DNA of 64,000 nt from a virus (lineage: Duplodnaviria; Heunggongvirae; Uroviricota; Caudoviricetes), in the IMG/VR virus record IMGVR_UViG_2687453508_000006. The stretch is one strand, 5' to 3'. The stretch's first letter is position 1, and every line of letters starts with the position of its first letter. Made by a program: the position numbers and the translations under genes. The notes beneath the pieces were generated by a model, which worked only from the letters and a program-made list of their open reading frames with translations, made no database searches and was not told the origin of the DNA. Of the stretch, positions 41,258 through 62,448 are shown piece by piece.

Positions 41258-41473
41258 TTAGTCTCCCCGCGCCGTCTTACGGCGGTCCTCCCTGATTTTG
41301 AAATACAGGTTAGTCAGATACGTCAGCAGGCCAAACAGCAGACTCCCCAGTACACCTATTGCCACCCACTGGGACGGAGAGACTTTGTCCAGCAGTTGCA
41401 GTAACCAGTATCCCGTCCCTACCGCTGACGTGGTGTATGACACACCTGTTGTGATTTTTTCCATCTGGTACAT
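41258..41473 (-). CDS. S: class II holin (phage-21 S-type pinholin) with dual start motif
   Basis: [71 protein letters not shown]; two in-frame ATGs at 41473 and 41464; paired with a SAR endolysin. Confidence 0.8.
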
Positions 41474-41622: not shown

Positions 41623-43476
41623 TTATGATGATGCCGGTGCATTTATCTCCAGCACCAGACTTTCTATCTCAACGCCATACGCTGCATTTTTTGTAACATC
41701 CGTCAGCGTCAGCGCATTCAGTCCCAGTGTCAGACTGTCTTTTATAACCTGGAATGCCGGGCCAGCCACTCCATTCAGTTTCGGAGTAACCGTGGCACTG
41801 CCGGCGGTGAACACCAGCTCCAGCGTCTGCCAGTCGTTACCGTAATCGCCGAACTCCCCCAGCTTCGTGTTTCCGGCTTTCCTGTGATGCATCAGATTCA
41901 CTCTGCCGTCAGTGGTCTGAGTGAAGTACGACATCAGGAACGGATTACCGGTACCCGTCATCGCCACACCATCAGGAACGGGAGCATCCGTATACAGATA
42001 AATCCCCAGCCCGAACTGATTGTTGGTCAGTGCGCCTGACAGGCGGAACTTACAGTTCAGTCTGCCGCCCTGTGTCAGCAGGGTAATTGCGTCATCCACC
42101 GGATGCGTCAGGGACCAGGTTTTATTGCTCTGCCTGGTGATCTTAAATACACCATCTGACAACTGAATTCCGCCATCCTTAATGCTCCAGCCCTGCGCAG
42201 CAGCCTCTCCGGCTGCCGGCAGCAGGGAGATTGTGCGAACGGACGTATCTGCAGACGGACCCGATGGCGTGTTGCCGCCGGGCGAGGGTTTGATTTCCGG
42301 TGCCTTACCACTGATGAAGGCGGAGGTGCGCCCGGCTGCGTTCAGAATAGCGGTTGCCAGACGATCCGGAATAATGCTCCTGCGCGCCCATGAACTGAAA
42401 TGTGTCGGGCGGTTTGATGATACCTGGTTTCCATTCGTTCTCGATGCCGCACCGTAATATCCTGATGCCGGAATATCCGGATCTTCTGCCGGCGCGTTAG
42501 TGGCGGTATTGACGCCGTTACCGTCTGTCATGAAGGGCACAAAATAAACGCCCTCACTCTCCCTGTTTTTATACCCGCCGTACACGGTGTCGTATTGGGT
42601 AGCGTATGTATTTTTCCAGTAATACGTCGTGTCACCACAAATCCACGGCACATCTGCAGCGCTGCCACCATGGCACTGCGCGTTAAACACGGAGAGGTCA
42701 GCACGAAACTGTGTCAGCATGGCTGTAAACAGCGCAGGTTGCTGTGCGTGGGTGGCGGCGCTCATGTCAAACTCACCCTGCATCCAGCAGACGGCCAGCA
42801 GAACGTTTTTGGGATTTTTCTGCAATGCCGCTTTTGTGCGGGAAATCAGATCCTGATATAACGGCTTGCCCACCCCCCAGCGTGCCGAATCCTGACTGGC
42901 CCCCGTGGACTCGCTGAATGTCCCCTCCGCGCCCTGGGTAAATGCCGAACCACCACGACAGCATGGTACCAGCAGGATCCCCGCGTTATTCGGGATATAC
43001 GGGAGCAGTTTTTTGGCAATATGTAAACCCTGGCCGACACAGCCGTACTGCCCTTTGCTCAGGTCAGCCCTCGGATGATTCAGCGTACTCATATCCTGCA
43101 CATCATGCAGACAGTGGTCAGCCGGAATAATATCGTTATATCTGCAGGCAGCCCCGCCCGGCGTCACTGTACTGCGGCGCGCCAGCTGTTTAATGCGCGG
43201 ATCCGGAGCATCGTATGAATCCGGCAGCGGAAGCCCTTCACCGTAAGCCATGGCATTGGACTGCCCGGCCAGTACGATGACGTAGTACCAATCCGGCTCA
43301 GATGAAGGGCCGACCTGTGGCTCTCCTTCAATAGCCACCGCCTGCATCAGTGTGTACGGCGTAATGGCAACCGGTCCGCCGTATGGCTGCCAGCCCTCTT
43401 TCAGTTTGTGTGTCAGCTTTTCCGCAAGGTCTGACGGCGACGCCGCCCTGACAACATCATAATGTTTAAATGTCAT
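41623..43476 (-). CDS. nanS: prophage sialate O-acetylesterase NanS-p (DUF1737 + SASA-like esterase)
   Basis: 617 aa, N-terminus [37 protein letters not shown] typical of NanS-p upstream of S in Stx-type phages. Confidence 0.8.
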
Positions 43477-43628
43477 TATTCCTCCCGGCCGGGATAGTGT
43501 ATTAAATCAGATATGGAGTGGGCTGGCTGTAGTCCGGAAGCCTGAATGACACTCGGGGACTACAGCCCAAGAAATGAAAAAAGGCCACGCAGTTGCGCAG
43601 CCTGATAAACCCTGGTTAAAATCCACAC

Positions 43629-43690
43629 GATAACAACACAACAATATCAGTATCTCATGCTATTGCCCGAACCCATTCGGGCATTTTTTA
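43629..43690 (+). ncRNA. candidate small RNA convergent to the moron transcript
   Basis: Putative promoter TTGCGC(43593)-18 bp-TAAAAT(43617-43622); CA-rich ACAACACAACAA; plus-specific terminator GCCCGAA-ccca-TTCGGGC + ATTTTTTA (43665-43690); no plus-strand ORF. Confidence 0.25.
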
Positions 43691-43693
43691 CCC

Positions 43694-43719
43694 ATAAAAA
43701 AGCCCCTCCGGAGAGGGGC
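43694..43719 (-). terminator. rho-independent terminator ending the terB-moron transcript
   Basis: GC-rich hairpin GCCCCTC-cgga-GAGGGGC followed by T-run on minus strand. Confidence 0.5.
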
Positions 43720-43886
43720 ATGTTTGCATGCACATTCTTTTTCTTGCATGGTGCCGGGTGCCTCCCGGTGAATTCAGTATCAGCACCTGAATCCGCGATT
43801 ATCCCATATACCTGGTTGCTGATCGCCCCTCCGCACAGGGGGATTCACCATGCAGAAGTGTTTTTAATAAACAGCAAACAAAAAAA

Positions 43887-44054
43887 TCAAGCATTATGCA
43901 GGCTGTTTCTTTTTATCACCGGCCACAGCAATACCACAATGCCGCAGACCAGCACCCCATCCGCCAGCACCGACATGATTCTGCTGGTGAAATCCACCAT
44001 CACCACCAGAAACAGCAGGAGTGCAGCCACAGCCAGGCGCAGTTTTACCGTCAC
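43887..44054 (-). CDS. small two-TM membrane protein, possibly coupled to the TerB-like gene
   Basis: 55-codon ORF; GTG start overlaps terB-like stop (GTGA); hydrophobic LRLAVAALLLFLVVMV and VLADGVLVCGIVVLLWPVI. Confidence 0.3.
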   Translation of the reverse strand: MTVKLRLAVAALLLFLVVMVDFTSRIMSVLADGVLVCGIVVLLWPVIKRNSLHNA

Positions 44055-44482
44055 AGGTGATTCTCCAGACGAAGACCCAGAACACCGGCAATCTCTTCCA
44101 GCACCTTGCGCTCTTCCGGCTCAATTTCGCCGTCTGCCTCCGCAATGGCCACCGCCACATCCAGCACATCTTCCGCTTCACGCGTATCGTGTTTCACATC
44201 CTCAATCTCGCGTAACGCGGCACGACGACCAATTTTAAAATTGGTATCCAGCTGACCGATAATAGTTGCGCTAATCGCATTAATTTCCGAGGTAAACGCA
44301 GACAACGCAGGCTGATTACGTAAGACCTGTTCGATCTTCGCTTTCTCGGATGCCTCGCATTCACCATCTGCATAGGCCACCAGGTATGCAGCGTTAATCA
44401 CCGCCTGTGCCAGATCGCGTTTCTCAAACTTTTTAATTTCCGCTGCCGCTCTGCGGGTTTTCTTTTTGAAGATTCCAAACAT
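44051..44482 (-). CDS. TerB-like (tellurite-resistance TerB family) protein, moron at the stx-equivalent position
   Basis: Start MFGIFKKKTRRAAAEIKKFEKRDLAQAVINAAYLVAYADGECEASEKAKIEQVL at 44482; acidic C-terminal repeat; RBS AAAGGAAC. Confidence 0.5.
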   Translation of the reverse strand: MFGIFKKKTRRAAAEIKKFEKRDLAQAVINAAYLVAYADGECEASEKAKIEQVLRNQPALSAFTSEINAISATIIGQLDTNFKIGRRAALREIEDVKHDTREAEDVLDVAVAIAEADGEIEPEERKVLEEIAGVLGLRLENHL

Positions 44483-44612
44483 CGTGACGTTCCTTTGGGT
44501 GGGTGAGCCAACGCCCGGGAGCGATCTGCCCACAGAGAAAGTCACACTGACCACTCCGTAAGCTCACCCCCGAAAGGCTCTGTGGTTGATATGCGCCGGG
44601 CGTGGCGCAGAT

Positions 44613-44638
44613 ACAAAAAAGGCCCGCCGAAGCGAGCC
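44613..44638 (-). terminator. possible terminator after tRNA-Arg
   Basis: Imperfect hairpin GGCTCG-cttcgg-CGGGCC followed by TTTTTTG on minus strand. Confidence 0.35.
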
Positions 44639-44651
44639 TGGAAAATAAGTG

Positions 44652-44728
44652 TGGCGCGTTGTAGTGGAGTCGAACCACTGACCGATTGCTTAGAAGGCAA
44701 TTGCTCTGTCCGGCTGAGCTAACAACGC
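44652..44728 (-). tRNA. tRNA-Arg (anticodon UCU)
   Basis: 77-nt cloverleaf GCGTTGTTAGCTCAGCCGGACAGAGCAATTGCCTTCTAAGCAATCGGTCAGTGGTTCGACTCCACTACAACGCGCCA; anticodon loop CTTCTAA; encoded CCA. Confidence 0.85.
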
Positions 44729-44828
44729 AGAATACCGATAATGGACCGCCATCGGGGACCCGCCCCCGCACCAACAACCCTGTTATGGTGTCGTCTGCTC
44801 TTCCTGATAAGCTAATGGCGGTTTGTGA

Positions 44829-44904
44829 TGGTGGCCCTTGCTGGATTTGAACCAGCGACCTGGCGATTATGAGTCGCTCGCTCTCACCACTGAGCTAAAG
44901 GGCC
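44829..44904 (-). tRNA. tRNA with CAU anticodon, ileX/ileZ-like (Ile2; Met not excluded)
   Basis: 76-nt GGCCCTTTAGCTCAGTGGTGAGAGCGAGCGACTCATAATCGCCAGGTCGCTGGTTCAAATCCAGCAAGGGCCACCA; anticodon loop CTCATAA. Confidence 0.85.
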
Positions 44905-44942: not shown

Positions 44943-44965
44943 TAAAAAACCCGCTCAATGGCGGG
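44943..44965 (-). terminator. tR'-like terminator downstream of the Q-like gene
   Basis: Hairpin CCCGC-cattga-GCGGG followed by T6 on minus strand, ~80 nt after the stop at 45044. Confidence 0.5.
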
Positions 44966-45043
44966 TTCTGGTAAAGTTCATGCGTTTGGTTCGCCTCGCG
45001 ATACAGCTTTGCGAAGCTTACCGGAATTGAAGCAGTTTTTACG

Positions 45044-45598
45044 TCAAAAAGCAATAACTTTTTTCTCTATACCAAAAGCCATAACCATTGGTTTGTACAA
45101 AATAAATTCTGCCACCTTTAGCCAATGCTCAATGCGTCTTTCACAGGTTCTTAAACTCCATTCCGGATGTGCATCATTCAGCAGTTCAGCCATTTTGCGC
45201 TTAGTCATCCCCCGCCCCACATAACGCTGACTCAGAACATTGAGCAGCCCGGGATAACCTGCCAGTACTTCACCAATAACCCTGTCGATTATTAACGCCT
45301 CTGAATCGGTACAATGCACCAGCCAGCTTTTTTGCTTGCCGTTGATCATATCCCGCAAAAAAGCCTCAAGTTTAGGTTTGTCCAGACCTGCTTTTTTCAT
45401 CCTCCGGAGCGCCTCGTTAATTGCCGTTTTTGTCAGCTTTTTAGAGGTCAGCAACTGGTTGAACATATTTCCCGTCTTACCGCCGCCAATATACGACCAG
45501 CGCCCCCACATACGTAGTTTCCCCTGAATCCAGACACTTTCCAGCGTGGTGAGACGAAGGTGCTCTCCGCTTTTTCCTGTGTTCGTTGGGTAAATCAT
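45044..45598 (-). CDS. putative late-gene antiterminator (Q-like)
   Basis: 184 aa from MIYPTNTGKSG...; last nin-type gene before terminator, tRNAs and lysis cassette; start overlaps ybcO stop; family not recognised with certainty. Confidence 0.45.
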   Translation of the reverse strand: MIYPTNTGKSGEHLRLTTLESVWIQGKLRMWGRWSYIGGGKTGNMFNQLLTSKKLTKTAINEALRRMKKAGLDKPKLEAFLRDMINGKQKSWLVHCTDSEALIIDRVIGEVLAGYPGLLNVLSQRYVGRGMTKRKMAELLNDAHPEWSLRTCERRIEHWLKVAEFILYKPMVMAFGIEKKVIAF

Positions 45599-46484: not shown

Positions 46485-46903
46485 TTCTCAATCTCTCGAT
46501 GGCGCAGTGCAGCAGATGCCAGTTGTTCAAGCTAGCACGCAAATTGTAAACCAGAATGCCAGGAAAAAACAAAACCCGCCGAAGCTGGTTGTGTGCGGTT
46601 GCGTTGAAGTCTCCTAGCCAAAGAGTAGCGGTGACCACTCCCCGCCGATAATCTTAGTTGTTTAATTTCGTAAGCTAACTAGGCTAAAAGCTCTCTGTTG
46701 TCTGCCTGTTGTACAATTAACAAAATGAACAACGAACTAGATATACCAACGCCAGAATGGTGCAACAAATCCCAAACAACACAGCAATGCAACAATAACA
46801 TATGTTATTTTCCTCTCACGGGATTCAGTCCTGAATTCTCATAAAGCTAATCTTTTTTTAAAAACATACTGTTAGATCACATGCACTTTCTTTCTTAACA
46901 TCG

Positions 46904-46931
46904 TTGACTTCGCATGCGAAGCGTTTAAAAT
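46904..46931 (+). promoter_or_regulatory. promoter of the GHKL operon with palindromic operator-like site in the spacer
   Basis: TTGACT(46904-46909)-16 bp-TAAAAT(46926-46931); perfect 14-bp palindrome CTTCGCATGCGAAG at 46908-46921; RBS AGAGAG before ATG 46984. Confidence 0.4.
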
Positions 46932-46983
46932 CAACAATTTGCACTTAAGGTATTTATTTTCCCAAACACATAGAGAGTAAATT

Positions 46984-48375
46984 ATGACTGAGAACACGAC
47001 TCCAACAGCAGACTTTAGTCCTAGTAAAAGATTTTTTGTAAGTATGCTAACTCGAGATATCGACTTAAACGATGCCATACTTGATCTGCTTGATAACTGC
47101 GTCGATGGGGCTTTACGTACAATAAAAGACACAAAAAAAACTTCAAAACCATATGAAGGATTTTATGCGAAACTTACGATTAATAAAGATGTCTTTATTA
47201 TAGAAGACAATTGCGGAGGTATCCCTAAAAGCTTCCGAGAATATGCTTTTAAAATGGGACGACCCCATCAAAAAGAAGAAGAAAATGAAGGCACCGTTGG
47301 CGTCTATGGTATTGGTATGAAAAGAGCCATTTTTAAAATGGGTAGAGATTGCTCAATACAATCGAATAATCCCGATGGCGCATTCACTGTAGATATAACA
47401 CCTGATTGGATCGATGGTGATGGTTGGAAAATACCGATGCACGAGAGTGACTATGATAACAAAAATCCAACAGGCACAACTATAGAGATAAAAAAACTCC
47501 ATTCTAATGTGGCACAAAAATTTAATGAGAGCACATATCTTACTGATCTCTTTTTACAGATAAAACACTCATTGTCATTTATTATTCAAAAAGGATTTAA
47601 AATAGAATTAAATGGAGTTGTTGTTGAACATAATCCGATTAACATCATAACTGATCATTCTAAAATAGAACCATACATATATAAAGCTAAAATAGACGAT
47701 GTTGATATCGATTTAGTTGTTGGCTTCTATAAAAATTTAGAAGATGACAATGATGATGTTTTAGAAAAAAGGAGTTCTGATGATGCTGGATGGACTGTCA
47801 TTTGCAATGACCGCGTTGTTCTATATTGTGATAAGACACATCTCACAGGTTGGGGCTTTGCTAATGTACCAAGGTTTCATACCCAATTTATAGCAATTTC
47901 TGGGGTTGTTCGCTTTACCAGTAAAAACCCAGAAAAATTACCAATAACAACAACGAAACGAGGTGTCGATCTTAGTTCTACATTGTACAATGATGTACGA
48001 AATAAAATGATTGAAGGGATGATGCATTTTATTCGATTCACCAATCAGTGGAAAGGTGAGCATCTTGAAGAAGGGAAAAAATTACTTAAGTCAGCTCAGT
48101 CACATGAAGCTCAATCTTTATTTGAAATTACCCCACAATCAACTCCAGAAGATAAAAAAAATAACTGGTCCAACCCTAATAGAAACAAAAATGAGTGGCG
48201 ATATACACCTAAGCTGCCTACCCCAGTAAAAAAAAGCTCTACTGTACGAATAATCTTCACCAGAGAGAAAGAAGATGTTAAAATTTTATCTAAATATTTC
48301 TTTGGACATGAAGATGCTAGCGCTTCTGATGTGGGGATGCAATGCTTTGATACGGTGATTGAAGAGGTGAAGTGA
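46984..48375 (+). CDS. GHKL/Bergerat-fold ATPase (MutL/MORC/histidine-kinase-like) with ~330-aa uncharacterised C-terminal region
   Basis: 463 aa; N-box LDLLDNCVDGA (res 33-42), G1 box IEDNCGGIP (73-81), G2 box GVYGIGMKRA (106-115); AT-rich codon usage. Confidence 0.8.
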   Translation: MTENTTPTADFSPSKRFFVSMLTRDIDLNDAILDLLDNCVDGALRTIKDTKKTSKPYEGFYAKLTINKDVFIIEDNCGGIPKSFREYAFKMGRPHQKEEENEGTVGVYGIGMKRAIFKMGRDCSIQSNNPDGAFTVDITPDWIDGDGWKIPMHESDYDNKNPTGTTIEIKKLHSNVAQKFNESTYLTDLFLQIKHSLSFIIQKGFKIELNGVVVEHNPINIITDHSKIEPYIYKAKIDDVDIDLVVGFYKNLEDDNDDVLEKRSSDDAGWTVICNDRVVLYCDKTHLTGWGFANVPRFHTQFIAISGVVRFTSKNPEKLPITTTKRGVDLSSTLYNDVRNKMIEGMMHFIRFTNQWKGEHLEEGKKLLKSAQSHEAQSLFEITPQSTPEDKKNNWSNPNRNKNEWRYTPKLPTPVKKSSTVRIIFTREKEDVKILSKYFFGHEDASASDVGMQCFDTVIEEVK

Positions 48376-49364
48376 TGTCTGGACAATACATTCCCTATCA
48401 CTTAAGGCATAATAAGTCTATTGATAGAGAGATTTTTCTCGAAAGCCTAAACCTCTTAAGCAAAAGACTAAATATTCAAGAATATACATATATAGGTTTT
48501 GGTGGTCCGATGCTTGAAGATTTTAGAATCATGCATAATCGTATCGCTCTTTCTGATATGATTTCTCTCGAAGAACAAGAGTCTACTCACATCAGACAAA
48601 AATATAATTTGCCTTATAATTGTATTGATTGTAAGCTAATATCAGCTCATGACTTTATTCTTGATTATAGTTTTTCTAAACCATCAATAACATGGTTAGA
48701 CTATGCCTCCCCGAAAAAAATACAAACGGATCTAGATGATATACACTTACTAAGTACTAAAGTAAGCTCTTTTGATATTTTGAAGGTCACCTTCCCCATA
48801 AATCCTAGTTCTTATTACCAACGTAGAGTTGGAGAAAGTTTAGATATTTTTAAAGAAGCTTTTATTAATTCATTAAAATCATTGCTTGGGAAAAAGTATC
48901 TTGATTTTAATCTTCAGATATCAAATGCAGATCTTTCAGATCGTAAGATTAAAGCTCTTTTAATACGAATTATTACAAACGCTTTTAGATCAGCAATAGA
49001 ACGTGGTCTTTCAGGACGTAAGGATAAGATTCAGTATTACCCATTATCCTTAAATCAATATAATGATGGCAGTCATACCATGTTGACAATATCAGGTTTT
49101 TTCTCCTCAGAACAAGAATATATAGAGTTATCTAAGGCATGCGACCTTTCTAACTGGCAATTTTATTCAACAAATTGGGAAGACGTGCAAGAAATAGCAA
49201 TACCAACACTAACAATTAAAGAAAAGATAAATTTAGATAGTAAACTGCCTGATAAAGAAGCATATCAGGCAGCCGCTGAAGAGTTCTCTTTAAACGAAAA
49301 TGAACGGGATAACTATTATAAATACTATAGGTTATACCCTAACTTCCAAAGAATTATGGTTTAA
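48375..49364 (+). CDS. uncharacterised partner protein, translationally coupled to the GHKL ATPase
   Basis: ATG overlaps upstream TGA (TGATG); 329-aa acidic protein MSGQYIPYHLRHNKSIDREIF...; no family recognised by eye. Confidence 0.65.
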   Translation: MSGQYIPYHLRHNKSIDREIFLESLNLLSKRLNIQEYTYIGFGGPMLEDFRIMHNRIALSDMISLEEQESTHIRQKYNLPYNCIDCKLISAHDFILDYSFSKPSITWLDYASPKKIQTDLDDIHLLSTKVSSFDILKVTFPINPSSYYQRRVGESLDIFKEAFINSLKSLLGKKYLDFNLQISNADLSDRKIKALLIRIITNAFRSAIERGLSGRKDKIQYYPLSLNQYNDGSHTMLTISGFFSSEQEYIELSKACDLSNWQFYSTNWEDVQEIAIPTLTIKEKINLDSKLPDKEAYQAAAEEFSLNENERDNYYKYYRLYPNFQRIMV

Positions 49365-50483
49365 ATATTCGGGCTGTACTCTTTTATTTAATAAATTGTA
49401 CAGCCCCTTTAATATATATTCAGCAACTATTGGTGACACGCTATTTCCTATTTGTCTGAAACTATGCCATTTAGTTACATGAAAGCGAAACCAATCAGGG
49501 AAGCCTTGTAATCTAGCAGCTTCTCTTGGTGTAATCACTCTTGGATGATAAGGGTGGATCGGCCTGACGGCTTGAAAGCTTCCTTTATCTCTAGCGGTTC
49601 CCGCCCTTAAAGTCGGGCAAAAACCATTTGGATCTAATCTTGTAGATCTTGAAATTTTATCAGTTTCCCCAAAAGATAAGGAAGCATAACGCTCTTGGAC
49701 GATTTTGCTATGTAATGTTCCGGTACATCCAGATATGATATTATTTTTTAACTTAGCGATCGATTCTGTATCACCAACATTCCGAGGGATCTGCCCCCAT
49801 AATTTTTCATAAAATCCCCCTTTTCGATCTTTTTTAATTGTTCGCCAACTCTCAGAGTCTGATTGCCAATTGGCATCGATAATATCTGGTAATCCATACA
49901 AAGCATCTTTTACAGTAACCGGATCAATCATTTTAGGCATAAATACTTCATCTGAAATATCAAGCTTCAATGATTTTTTTACACCGATAAAAAAATATCT
50001 AGTTCGAATAGTTGGAGCACCATAATCAGATGCTTTTACCTTGATGGGATCAAGAATATCATAATCACCGCTAACCAAATTAAATGCTTTATTTCTAATG
50101 CCAGAATATTTCTCTTGCATAATACCTGGAACATTTTCTGCCAAAAAGAATAATGGCTGTAATTCTGATACTAAACGGTAGAAATGCATGTAAAGCTGAT
50201 TCCTGCTATCATCAGGATTCCCCTTGCCTATTGAACTAAATCCTTGGCACGGAGGACCGCCAATAATACCATCTATGGGCATATCGTTTTTAAAAAAACC
50301 CTTAATTATTTCTGCATTTAGTAAAGAAACATCTTCTTGGACGTGCAAACTTCTTGGAAAATTAATTGCGTGAGTATTAATAGCATGTTGATCAATTTCA
50401 ACTGCCATTTTAACATCAAATCCAGCACGTGCAGCACCAAGACTTAGACCTCCAACGCCAGAAAACAAATCTATTACATTCAT
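49332..50483 (-). CDS. DNA (cytosine-5)-methyltransferase (Dcm family)
   Basis: 383 aa; motif I DLFSGVGG, motif IV GGPPCQGFS, motif VI ENV, motif X QIGNSV; convergent with and overlapping the partner gene 3' end by 33 bp. Confidence 0.9.
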   Translation of the reverse strand: MNVIDLFSGVGGLSLGAARAGFDVKMAVEIDQHAINTHAINFPRSLHVQEDVSLLNAEIIKGFFKNDMPIDGIIGGPPCQGFSSIGKGNPDDSRNQLYMHFYRLVSELQPLFFLAENVPGIMQEKYSGIRNKAFNLVSGDYDILDPIKVKASDYGAPTIRTRYFFIGVKKSLKLDISDEVFMPKMIDPVTVKDALYGLPDIIDANWQSDSESWRTIKKDRKGGFYEKLWGQIPRNVGDTESIAKLKNNIISGCTGTLHSKIVQERYASLSFGETDKISRSTRLDPNGFCPTLRAGTARDKGSFQAVRPIHPYHPRVITPREAARLQGFPDWFRFHVTKWHSFRQIGNSVSPIVAEYILKGLYNLLNKRVQPEYLNHNSLEVRV

Positions 50484-50744
50484 ATAGTTGCAACGTCTCT
50501 TATTAGTTTCTATGTATTATAACACAACTGTTCTTGATGTTTTAACCCCATAAGATAACCTCATAAAGGCTATCCCTTGAAAATACCGGATCGCATAAAT
50601 TTAATCTTTCAAAACTACTTGTCTATTAATCGAGCAATTTAAGGTTGTTTTAGTCATGTCGATACCGACATAGTTAACTAAACCCATTTCATCGTCCAAC
50701 AAATGGGGGTAATACACTTTGATTTATAGTCGGGTGGGTTTTTC

Positions 50745-62259: not shown

Positions 62260-62448
62260 ATGTATAAAATTACCGCCACTATTGAAAAGGAAGGTGGCAC
62301 TCCTACTAACTGGACAAGATATTCAAAATCTAAACTAACGAAATCAGAATGCGAAAAAATGCTCTCAGGTAAAAAAGAAGCAGGCGTTTCCAGAGAGCAG
62401 AAAGTAAAACTGATAAATTTTAATTGCGAGAAACTTCAGTCCTCGTGA
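62260..62448 (+). CDS. ydaC: YdaC-like small protein
   Basis: 62 aa MYKITATIEKEGGTPTNWTRYSKSKLTKSECEKMLSGKKEAG... Confidence 0.5.
   Translation: MYKITATIEKEGGTPTNWTRYSKSKLTKSECEKMLSGKKEAGVSREQKVKLINFNCEKLQSS

Follow-up and report, generated by a model that had tools for sequence, protein, structure and literature searches.

The gene pair and its prior annotation

We analysed two small overlapping genes, homologues of phage P1 tciA and tciB, in a 64,000-nucleotide stretch of tailed-phage DNA (Caudoviricetes; IMG/VR record IMGVR_UViG_2687453508_000006), hereafter the window, where a first reading of the letters (the original prediction) had marked them as a cargo pair. The pair is made up as follows.

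44051-44482, minus strand: tciA-like gene of the TerB family, 143 aa, ATG start (44482..44051), RefSeq WP_000466957.1
43887-44054, minus strand: tciB-like gene, 55 aa, GTG start (44054..43887), encoding a DUF3927 hairpin with two transmembrane (TM) segments, RefSeq WP_000216636.1
44051-44054, minus strand: GTGA start/stop overlap read directly from the sequence, by which the two genes are translationally coupled

The plus-strand letters at 44051-44054 are tcac, hence GTGA on the gene strand, where the GTG start of tciB overlaps the TGA stop of tciA. By eye, Shine-Dalgarno-like sites precede both starts: AAGGAA before the tciA ATG, and GGAG 8 nt before the tciB GTG. Both genes are present in 79 of 80 related IMG/VR prophage loci, with the GTGA junction in 78 of the 80, and the RefSeq annotation of Escherichia coli O157:H7 EDL933 has the same two coding sequences at identical coordinates, under the product names 'tellurite resistance TerB family protein' (WP_000466957.1) and 'DUF3927 family protein' (WP_000216636.1). 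Because both have Pfam and PHROG matches, are conserved in 79 of the 80 loci and are RefSeq coding sequences, we do not regard either open reading frame as a product of chance. The two frames and their GTGA coupling had been predicted, and every positional detail was correct. A longer, 167-aa reading of the TerB frame from a GTG at 44554 was rejected: the N-termini of the homologues align at MFG, RefSeq chooses the ATG, and the AAGGAA ribosome site precedes that ATG.

The gene pair is not new; it is a known, annotated homologue of phage P1 tciA/tciB (PHROG 632 and 1470), and the same genes carry the labels tciA and tciB in phage JLK-2012. These are placeholder names that go back to the 2004 P1 annotation, which PMC4319500 cites. 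The pair had been proposed as cargo in a moron hotspot, which holds for its position but overlooks a named family already annotated in P1, in RefSeq and in JLK-2012. A 1,051-bp stretch is 100% identical in EDL933 and many other enterohaemorrhagic E. coli (EHEC) chromosomes, and at least 80% of it is held by 758 of 5,426 complete E. coli genomes (~14%).

The TerB-family protein

TciA is a small soluble TerB-fold protein. It matches Pfam TerB (PF05099) with 60.2 bits (cut-off 24.4; E 2.9e-16; profile positions 2-109 of 118) and PHROG 632 'tellurite resistance' over its full length (1-143 of 143; E 1.7e-69), aligns with the solved Klebsiella TerB (PDB 2jxu_A; E 4.4e-8; residues 14-137 against 20-144), and is 42% identical to P1 TciA. 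Two acidic DG-x5-E motifs line up with those of 2jxu, ADGECEASE with ASDGVSSEE and ADGEIEPEE with SDGNFDDDE; among 29 TciA homologues E46, G118 and E124 are invariant, and D39, G40 and D117 nearly so. An AlphaFold2 (AF2) model built from the 29-homologue alignment is all-helical, with nine helices and a confidence (pLDDT) of 87.6, and its best PDB matches in Foldseek are the TerB-superfamily structures 2h5n (probability 1.0, TM-score 0.55-0.64) and 2ou3 (COG3793 tellurite-resistance protein). The expectation that the 143-aa protein would be TerB-like, to be checked at the level of fold, is thus borne out by Pfam, PHROG, the 2jxu alignment and the AF2 model. The N-terminal helix of TciA is polybasic (net +7 over 22 residues, low pLDDT), and the body of the protein is acidic (net -13).

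The likeness to TerB of the ter clusters (terZABCDE(F)) extends over almost the full length, with both acidic motifs and the all-helical fold in common, but TciA stands alone with a 55-aa hairpin as its partner, whereas ter-cluster TerB is accompanied by the multi-pass TerC. TciA belongs to a distinct TerB subfamily, and a search of NCBIfam found no equivalog for it. Its partial NCBIfam match is to the TerB-like part of DjlA (E 1e-6; 28.6 bits against a cut-off of 162), far too low for membership of the DjlA family. DjlA, which consists of a TM helix, a TerB-like domain and a J domain, places its TerB-like domain at the cytoplasmic face of the inner membrane, as we propose for TciA, but does so in a single polypeptide with a J domain. 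The defence systems Shango (SngA), Bunzi (BnzA) and Dionysus (DinB) also combine a TerB domain with membrane proteins, as in tciAB; they differ in being host-encoded, in having at least three genes, and in their helicase, ATPase or pore-forming effectors. A search of the PADLOC database gave no significant match for the pair: for TciA only PDC-S48 was returned (E 0.0035 over 35 residues), and for TciB nothing.

The two-TM hairpin protein

TciB, a helical hairpin of the inner membrane, matches Pfam DUF3927 with 62.3 bits (cut-off 25; E 4.3e-17) and PHROG 1470 'TciB-like' over its full length (1-54 of 54; E 4e-30), and is 50% identical to P1 TciB. Together with the GTGA overlap, these matches uphold the call of a coupled two-TM micro-protein. 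DUF3927 is its sole Pfam match, and no holin family was hit. An alignment with homologues from phages P1, Pollock, Klebsiella, 434 and Erwinia reveals a conserved DFTS turn and an Asp-Gly in the second TM segment; F22 is invariant, with D21, D32 and G33 nearly so. The net charge is +2 at the N-terminus, 0 in the turn and +2 at the C-terminus, and we therefore predict that both ends are cytoplasmic (N-in/C-in).

The family is narrow. Searching its profile against 1.84 billion representative proteins returned 119 clusters at E <=0.001, nearly all of them stand-alone proteins of 45-65 aa. Five apparent TerB-DUF3927 fusions (P0124, P0186, P0249, P0285 and P0296) were rejected as frameshifted or chimeric gene calls.

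The same gene order in unrelated phages

The comparison set comprised 15 phages: the window and 14 others, chosen across the tblastn hit list and taken from GenBank. In nine of them a TerB gene is followed on the same strand, with a gap of -8 to +4 nt, by a TciB-type two-TM hairpin gene: the window, P1, D6, Pollock, FSL SP-076, Klebsiella phage 5 LV-2017, the Erwinia jumbo phage ChrisDB, Pantoea phage LIET2 and Pseudomonas phage nickie. Pollock and FSL SP-076 are virulent N4-like phages. The partners in LIET2 and nickie score above the DUF3927 cut-off, and that of ChrisDB, which falls below it (14 vs 25 bits), was counted on its PHROG label and the alignment. The order 'TerB gene, small membrane-protein gene' therefore recurs across unrelated temperate and strictly lytic phages, and the finding of TerB-then-TciB-type order in nine of 15 sampled phages, strictly lytic ones included, is what is new here.

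The remaining phages vary in what accompanies TerB. In two (Pseudomonas phages Zuri and AF) the next gene encodes a different conserved protein with one TM segment and the motif YGWQTERET...FVGCMV (L091, 1943-2146; L008, 1932-2153); it belongs to no Pfam family, and its reading frame is unannotated in AF. In one, the N4-like Vibrio phage BUCT194, a TerC/Alx-family membrane protein lies between two TerB genes, and this row of TerB, TerC/Alx and TerB (L096, 1-2177) amounts to a phage-borne partial ter cluster. The other three, Vibrio phage K481 and phages PMBT3 and phiM5, are taken up below.

The closest parallel is P1, in which the same two families stand in the same order and on the same strand, abutting or overlapping, beside phage tRNA genes as in the window. 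The settings differ: the P1 copy lies between the C1-operator-controlled ban promoters and ban, an early, C1-controlled position, as against the probably Q-dependent late region of a lambdoid prophage here. P1 has in addition tciC, whereas no small TM reading frame follows tciB in the window; most other homologous loci lack it too, so that tciC is not part of the core. Peptides of TciA have been found in P1 virion preparations (PMC9024508).

As a side observation, four unrelated backbones have phage tRNA genes no further than ~1.5 kb from the TerB-TciB pair, namely lambdoid prophages, P1/D6, ChrisDB and nickie (window 44652-44904; L004, 1616-3276; L006, 887-3277; L009, 2038-2113; L095, 1711-1789; L097, 528-1233). 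A gene for an HslV-like peptidase is also near the pair in ChrisDB and nickie.

The slot between Q and the esterase gene

The pair occupies a slot bordered upstream by a Q-type antiterminator gene and downstream by an esterase gene. In the direction of the genes, its other features are listed here.

45044-45598, minus strand: Q-type late antiterminator gene (Pfam DUF1133 and Phage_antitermQ; RefSeq coordinates, the open frame reaching 45718)
44950-44975, minus strand: candidate tR', a terminator-like hairpin that separates the Q gene from the tRNAs (-16 kcal/mol, z -4.1, followed by UUUUUUAUU)
44829-44904, minus strand: tRNA with a CAU anticodon (Met according to ARAGORN; Ile, i.e. ileZ-like Ile2, according to RefSeq)
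44652-44728, minus strand: tRNA-Arg (UCU) (ARAGORN; Rfam tRNA, 67 bits)
44620-44639, minus strand: terminator-like hairpin after tRNA-Arg and upstream of tciA (-14.6 kcal/mol, z -3.4, followed by a U-run)
44483-44619, minus strand: structured 5' leader of 137 nt, which moves with the cassette
43690-43882, minus strand: small RNA (sRNA) of the STnc100 family (Rfam RF02076, 145.8 bits, cut-off 47, full-length)
43628-43689, plus strand: anti-GcvB sRNA AgvB (Rfam RF02702, 96.5 bits, cut-off 56, identical to the consensus), adjoining STnc100 and converging on it
43582-43603, minus strand: terminator-like hairpin before the esterase gene (-14.9 kcal/mol, z -4.3)
41623-43476, minus strand: nanS-p-type SASA carbohydrate esterase gene, the downstream border of the slot (Pfam DUF1737, SASA and DUF6645; RefSeq)
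41258-41473, minus strand: class II (P21-type) holin gene, the start of the lysis cassette (Pfam Phage_holin_2_1; RefSeq coordinates)

A DUF1327 gene and a lysozyme gene follow further on, after the P21-type holin. The flanks of the pair thus consist of tRNAs, the Q gene, the esterase gene and lysis genes, and no other ter gene (terC, terD, terE or terZ) is near it. The assignment of the 44975-44950 hairpin as tR' follows from its position. The fold of the leader is a long hairpin (z -3.65 against shuffles; -73.6 kcal/mol for 178 nt) that persists in 13 sequence variants of related prophages, mostly through single changes compatible with G-U pairing and with one compensatory pair only.

That this is the slot which in Shiga toxin (Stx) phages holds stxAB, and a mosaic position for cargo, was predicted, and both the breakpoints described below and a comparison with Shigella phage 75/02 Stx agree. 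In that phage stx1AB sits between Q and a homologous esterase gene, and window positions 43600-43867 are 85% identical to its stxB-esterase spacer. The Stx2 phage uses the same position, after Q and the tRNAs and before the esterase and S genes, and there too the cargo is followed by a convergent sRNA pair, EcOnc27 and AsxR in place of the STnc100-type RNA and AgvB found here. It differs in its cargo, a secreted toxin as against an intracellular or membrane module. AgvB is the sole element of the locus with a published function.

The STnc100-family sRNA begins 5 nt after the tciB stop. The pair had been credited with a terminator of its own; the hairpin exists, at 43719-43702, but it is the 3' hairpin of this sRNA. 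A layout of cargo coding sequence downstream of PR', convergent sRNAs and a conserved open reading frame was described by Tree et al. 2014 for eight Sakai prophages including the Stx2 phage (PMC4104026), which also placed AgvB in Sakai Sp10 and Sp17 and reported its anti-GcvB function. Because of that description, we regard the architecture of the slot and its RNA content as already published. By eye, a -10-like CATAAT can be read on the minus strand at 43898-43893, within the last tciB codons and a short way before STnc100 begins, so that the sRNA may be transcribed from a promoter of its own within tciB. The published EDL933 RNA-seq/Ribo-seq data contain an 'STnc100_7' (old coordinate 2145571), but its equivalence to the copy in the window was not confirmed and we claim no expression value from it.

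Late or lysogenic expression

A consensus scan of the gene strand from the upstream terminator to the start codon (44620-44482) detected no sigma-70-like promoter, though such a scan can miss weak or activator-dependent promoters, which leaves some room for expression in the lysogen. Both the 44975-44950 and the 44639-44620 hairpins stand between Q and the pair. In Stx2 phages, transcription of stx2 in this position starts at pR' and depends on antitermination by Q. Given the lack of a detected promoter, the two upstream terminator hairpins and the analogy with stx2, the pair is probably a Q-dependent late gene set, made mainly after induction and silent in the resting lysogen.

Mosaic boundaries among related prophages

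The TerB alignment, scanned against IMG/VR, matched nothing but near-identical prophages of E. coli (97-100% identity), of which 80 loci were used to map breakpoints in homology. Upstream breakpoints recur at 44608-44639, and downstream breakpoints at 43927 and 43906, in the last tciB codons, and at 43746, inside STnc100. Because these breakpoints recur, we consider that the coding pair and its leader behave as a mosaic cassette. Insertion between conserved phage genes at mosaic junctions is one trait of a moron as Juhala et al. 2000 use the term; for the other, a promoter and terminator of its own that would allow expression from the repressed prophage, the consensus scan showed no promoter, though it could miss a weak or activator-dependent one, and the downstream terminator is the 3' end of STnc100. 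A mosaic junction also falls in the C-terminal tail of TciB itself (43887-43927), in that relatives change from ...KRNSLHNA to a ...KKDMPGS-type ending at the 43906 and 43927 breaks. In three loci (L036, 497-2913; L037; L038) an IS66-family element with HTH_Tnp_1, TnpB_IS66 and DDE_Tnp_IS66 genes lies directly before the tciA start, between the tRNAs and tciA, and homology to the window ends at 44484.

Elsewhere in the window

Two features of the window lie apart from the slot. Positions 46500-50500, in the nin region, form an AT-rich island (31-38% GC) on the strand opposite to the gene pair, with genes for an HATPase_c_3 protein (46984-48375) and a putative O-methyltransferase of the Methyltransf_35 family (48372-49364); in RefSeq a DNA cytosine methyltransferase gene adjoins these two. 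A PADLOC search gave no match for the island, which could be an uncharacterised defence or modification cassette. At 62266-62444, on the minus strand, lies the RalA antitoxin sRNA of the RalR/RalA type I toxin-antitoxin system (225 bits, cut-off 170).

What the pair may do

We tentatively favour the possibility that tciAB encodes a membrane-anchored TerB module acting in lytic growth, where its job would probably be to guard the inner membrane. A lytic-cycle role at the membrane is preferred because TerB and a small membrane protein recur as an operon, because lytic phages have that operon, and because of its position at ban in P1. The pair would be produced after induction from the Q-dependent late unit, like stx2. 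TciA and TciB would then form a membrane-bound complex, with TciB as anchor or effector and TciA as the cytoplasmic subunit that senses a ligand or metal; such a complex would be a split version of the DjlA layout and a parallel to the reported TerB-TerC pairing, a complex cited in a passage of PMC11003894. The module may protect the energised inner membrane, either by excluding superinfecting phages or by conferring resistance to pore-forming colicins or abortive-infection pores. We propose this kind of job because phage and colicin resistance are the only non-tellurite phenotypes tied to TerB-containing systems; for ter clusters, phage inhibition and resistance to pore-forming colicins are cited in passages of PMC4319500 and PMC7371120. 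Tellurite resistance itself is almost certainly not conferred by tciAB, since terC, terD and terE are needed as well and no other ter gene is nearby; the minimal requirement has been given as terBCDE(F) (PMC11003894).

Several observations weigh against this proposal. Gene order is the only evidence for a complex, and among the 119 representative TciB clusters there is no genuine TerB-DUF3927 fusion. The partnership is not obligatory: the TerB genes of Vibrio phage K481 and of phages PMBT3 and phiM5, three of the 15 phages compared, are without an obvious membrane partner, and in phage 434 this same slot between Q and the esterase gene holds TciB but lacks TerB. Foldseek E-values for the TciA model are weak (0.018 to 0.7), and the amphipathicity of its N-terminal helix, being reached by 771 of 10,000 shuffles, is suggestive at most. 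The late promoter pR' was not located by the consensus scan combined with reading by eye. In P1, tciA, tciB and tciC are non-essential and gave no phenotype in a CRISPR interference screen, and the literature we searched holds no experimental study of any TciA or TciB homologue; papers there that mention a phage or prophage TerB offer speculation on its role and no experiment. As a side observation, in the slot of phage 434 (L003, 3322-4554) the tciB gene is flanked by genes for 247-aa and 62-aa putative membrane proteins that belong to no Pfam family.

A different use of the same parts would be as a decoy against host defence, in which the phage TerB protein mimics or titrates the TerB sensor of a host membrane-immunity system (ter Phi, Shango, Bunzi or Dionysus) and TciB sites it at the membrane. 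TerB domains are indeed parts of validated defence systems, virulent phages that would gain nothing from lysogenic conversion carry the pair, and the P1 genes are non-essential in a laboratory host poor in defences. However, of the TerB proteins compared here, classical TerB (2jxu) is closer to TciA than is any known one from a defence system, its resemblance to PADLOC entries goes no further than the 35-residue match noted above, and we know of no anti-defence protein of TerB fold. We consider a decoy unlikely, if still worth keeping in view.

Slightly less credible is a module for lysis timing, with TciB as a holin- or antiholin-like hairpin and TciA as its regulator, together tuning the permeabilisation of the membrane. 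The size of TciB and its predicted N-in/C-in two-TM topology are those of class II holins, and both in the window and in Klebsiella phage 5 LV-2017 the late operon has the pair immediately ahead of its lysis genes. Yet TciB matches no holin family, the window already has a bona fide P21-type holin, and the lysis genes are not neighbours of the pair in P1, LIET2, the N4-like phages and the jumbo phages, so that we doubt this role.

We are equally doubtful of a part in metal-ion homeostasis, which would make the pair a minimal counterpart of TerB-TerC in which TciB, with an Asp inside the membrane, would be the conductor or regulator of a cation (Mn2+, Ca2+ or Zn2+) and the DG-x5-E motifs of TciA its binding site, to the benefit of phage replication. 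The conservation of both acidic motifs and their alignment with TerB 2jxu speak for it, as do the nearly invariant D21 and D32 of TciB and the TerC/Alx-family metal homeostasis protein between the two TerB genes of the N4-like Vibrio phage; terC is reported to contribute to zinc resistance in Klebsiella (PMC12054061). A 55-aa hairpin is nonetheless small for a transporter unless it is oligomeric, and metal binding by the TciA subfamily is hypothetical.

As a classical lysogenic-conversion moron, the reading towards which the original prediction leaned, the pair would be expressed from the prophage and would give an EHEC lysogen resistance to tellurite, oxidative stress or colicins. The family name, the cargo position and the cassette-like recurrent boundaries fit this picture, as does the presence of the pair in the 758 complete E. 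coli genomes. Against it stand the absence of a detected promoter, the two upstream terminators, the insufficiency of TerB alone for tellurite resistance, the occurrence of the same pair in strictly lytic phages, and a full ter island already present in EHEC O157, as reported in PMC8193136. Expression in the lysogen is thus probably the wrong reading, a lytic-cycle role fits better, and we hold conversion to be quite improbable.

Most improbable of all is the inhibition of cell division during host take-over by a small membrane protein that blocks the divisome, the third option of the name 'tci': other prophage small proteins, Kil and DicB, do inhibit division, but the sole source for TciB is the P1 annotation carried into PHROG 1470, which holds nothing specific to it, the name derives from a toxicity phenotype of the ter cluster and not from TciA or TciB, and no similarity to known division inhibitors was found in Pfam, NCBIfam or PHROG.

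Returning to the membrane-guarding module that we tentatively prefer, a broader version of it, which we think improbable, would make tciAB a widespread phage 'membrane guard' or counter-defence module that in lytic growth neutralises depolarising abortive-infection effectors or TerB-based host sensors; the adjacency to tRNA genes in the four backbones would in that case be the sign of a shared anti-immunity island.

The locus itself is ordinary, being an annotated pair in a well-studied EHEC genome and in a slot of published architecture. The tciA/tciB module is widespread, being found in ~14% of complete E. coli genomes, in P1-type phage-plasmids, and in lytic N4-like and jumbo phages. Co-expression of the pair with the late genes, like that of stx2, would, if confirmed, place it in the induction programme of EHEC prophages and not in the phenotype of the lysogen. 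A defined role for tciAB, if confirmed, would inform how TerB domains act in bacterial immunity systems.

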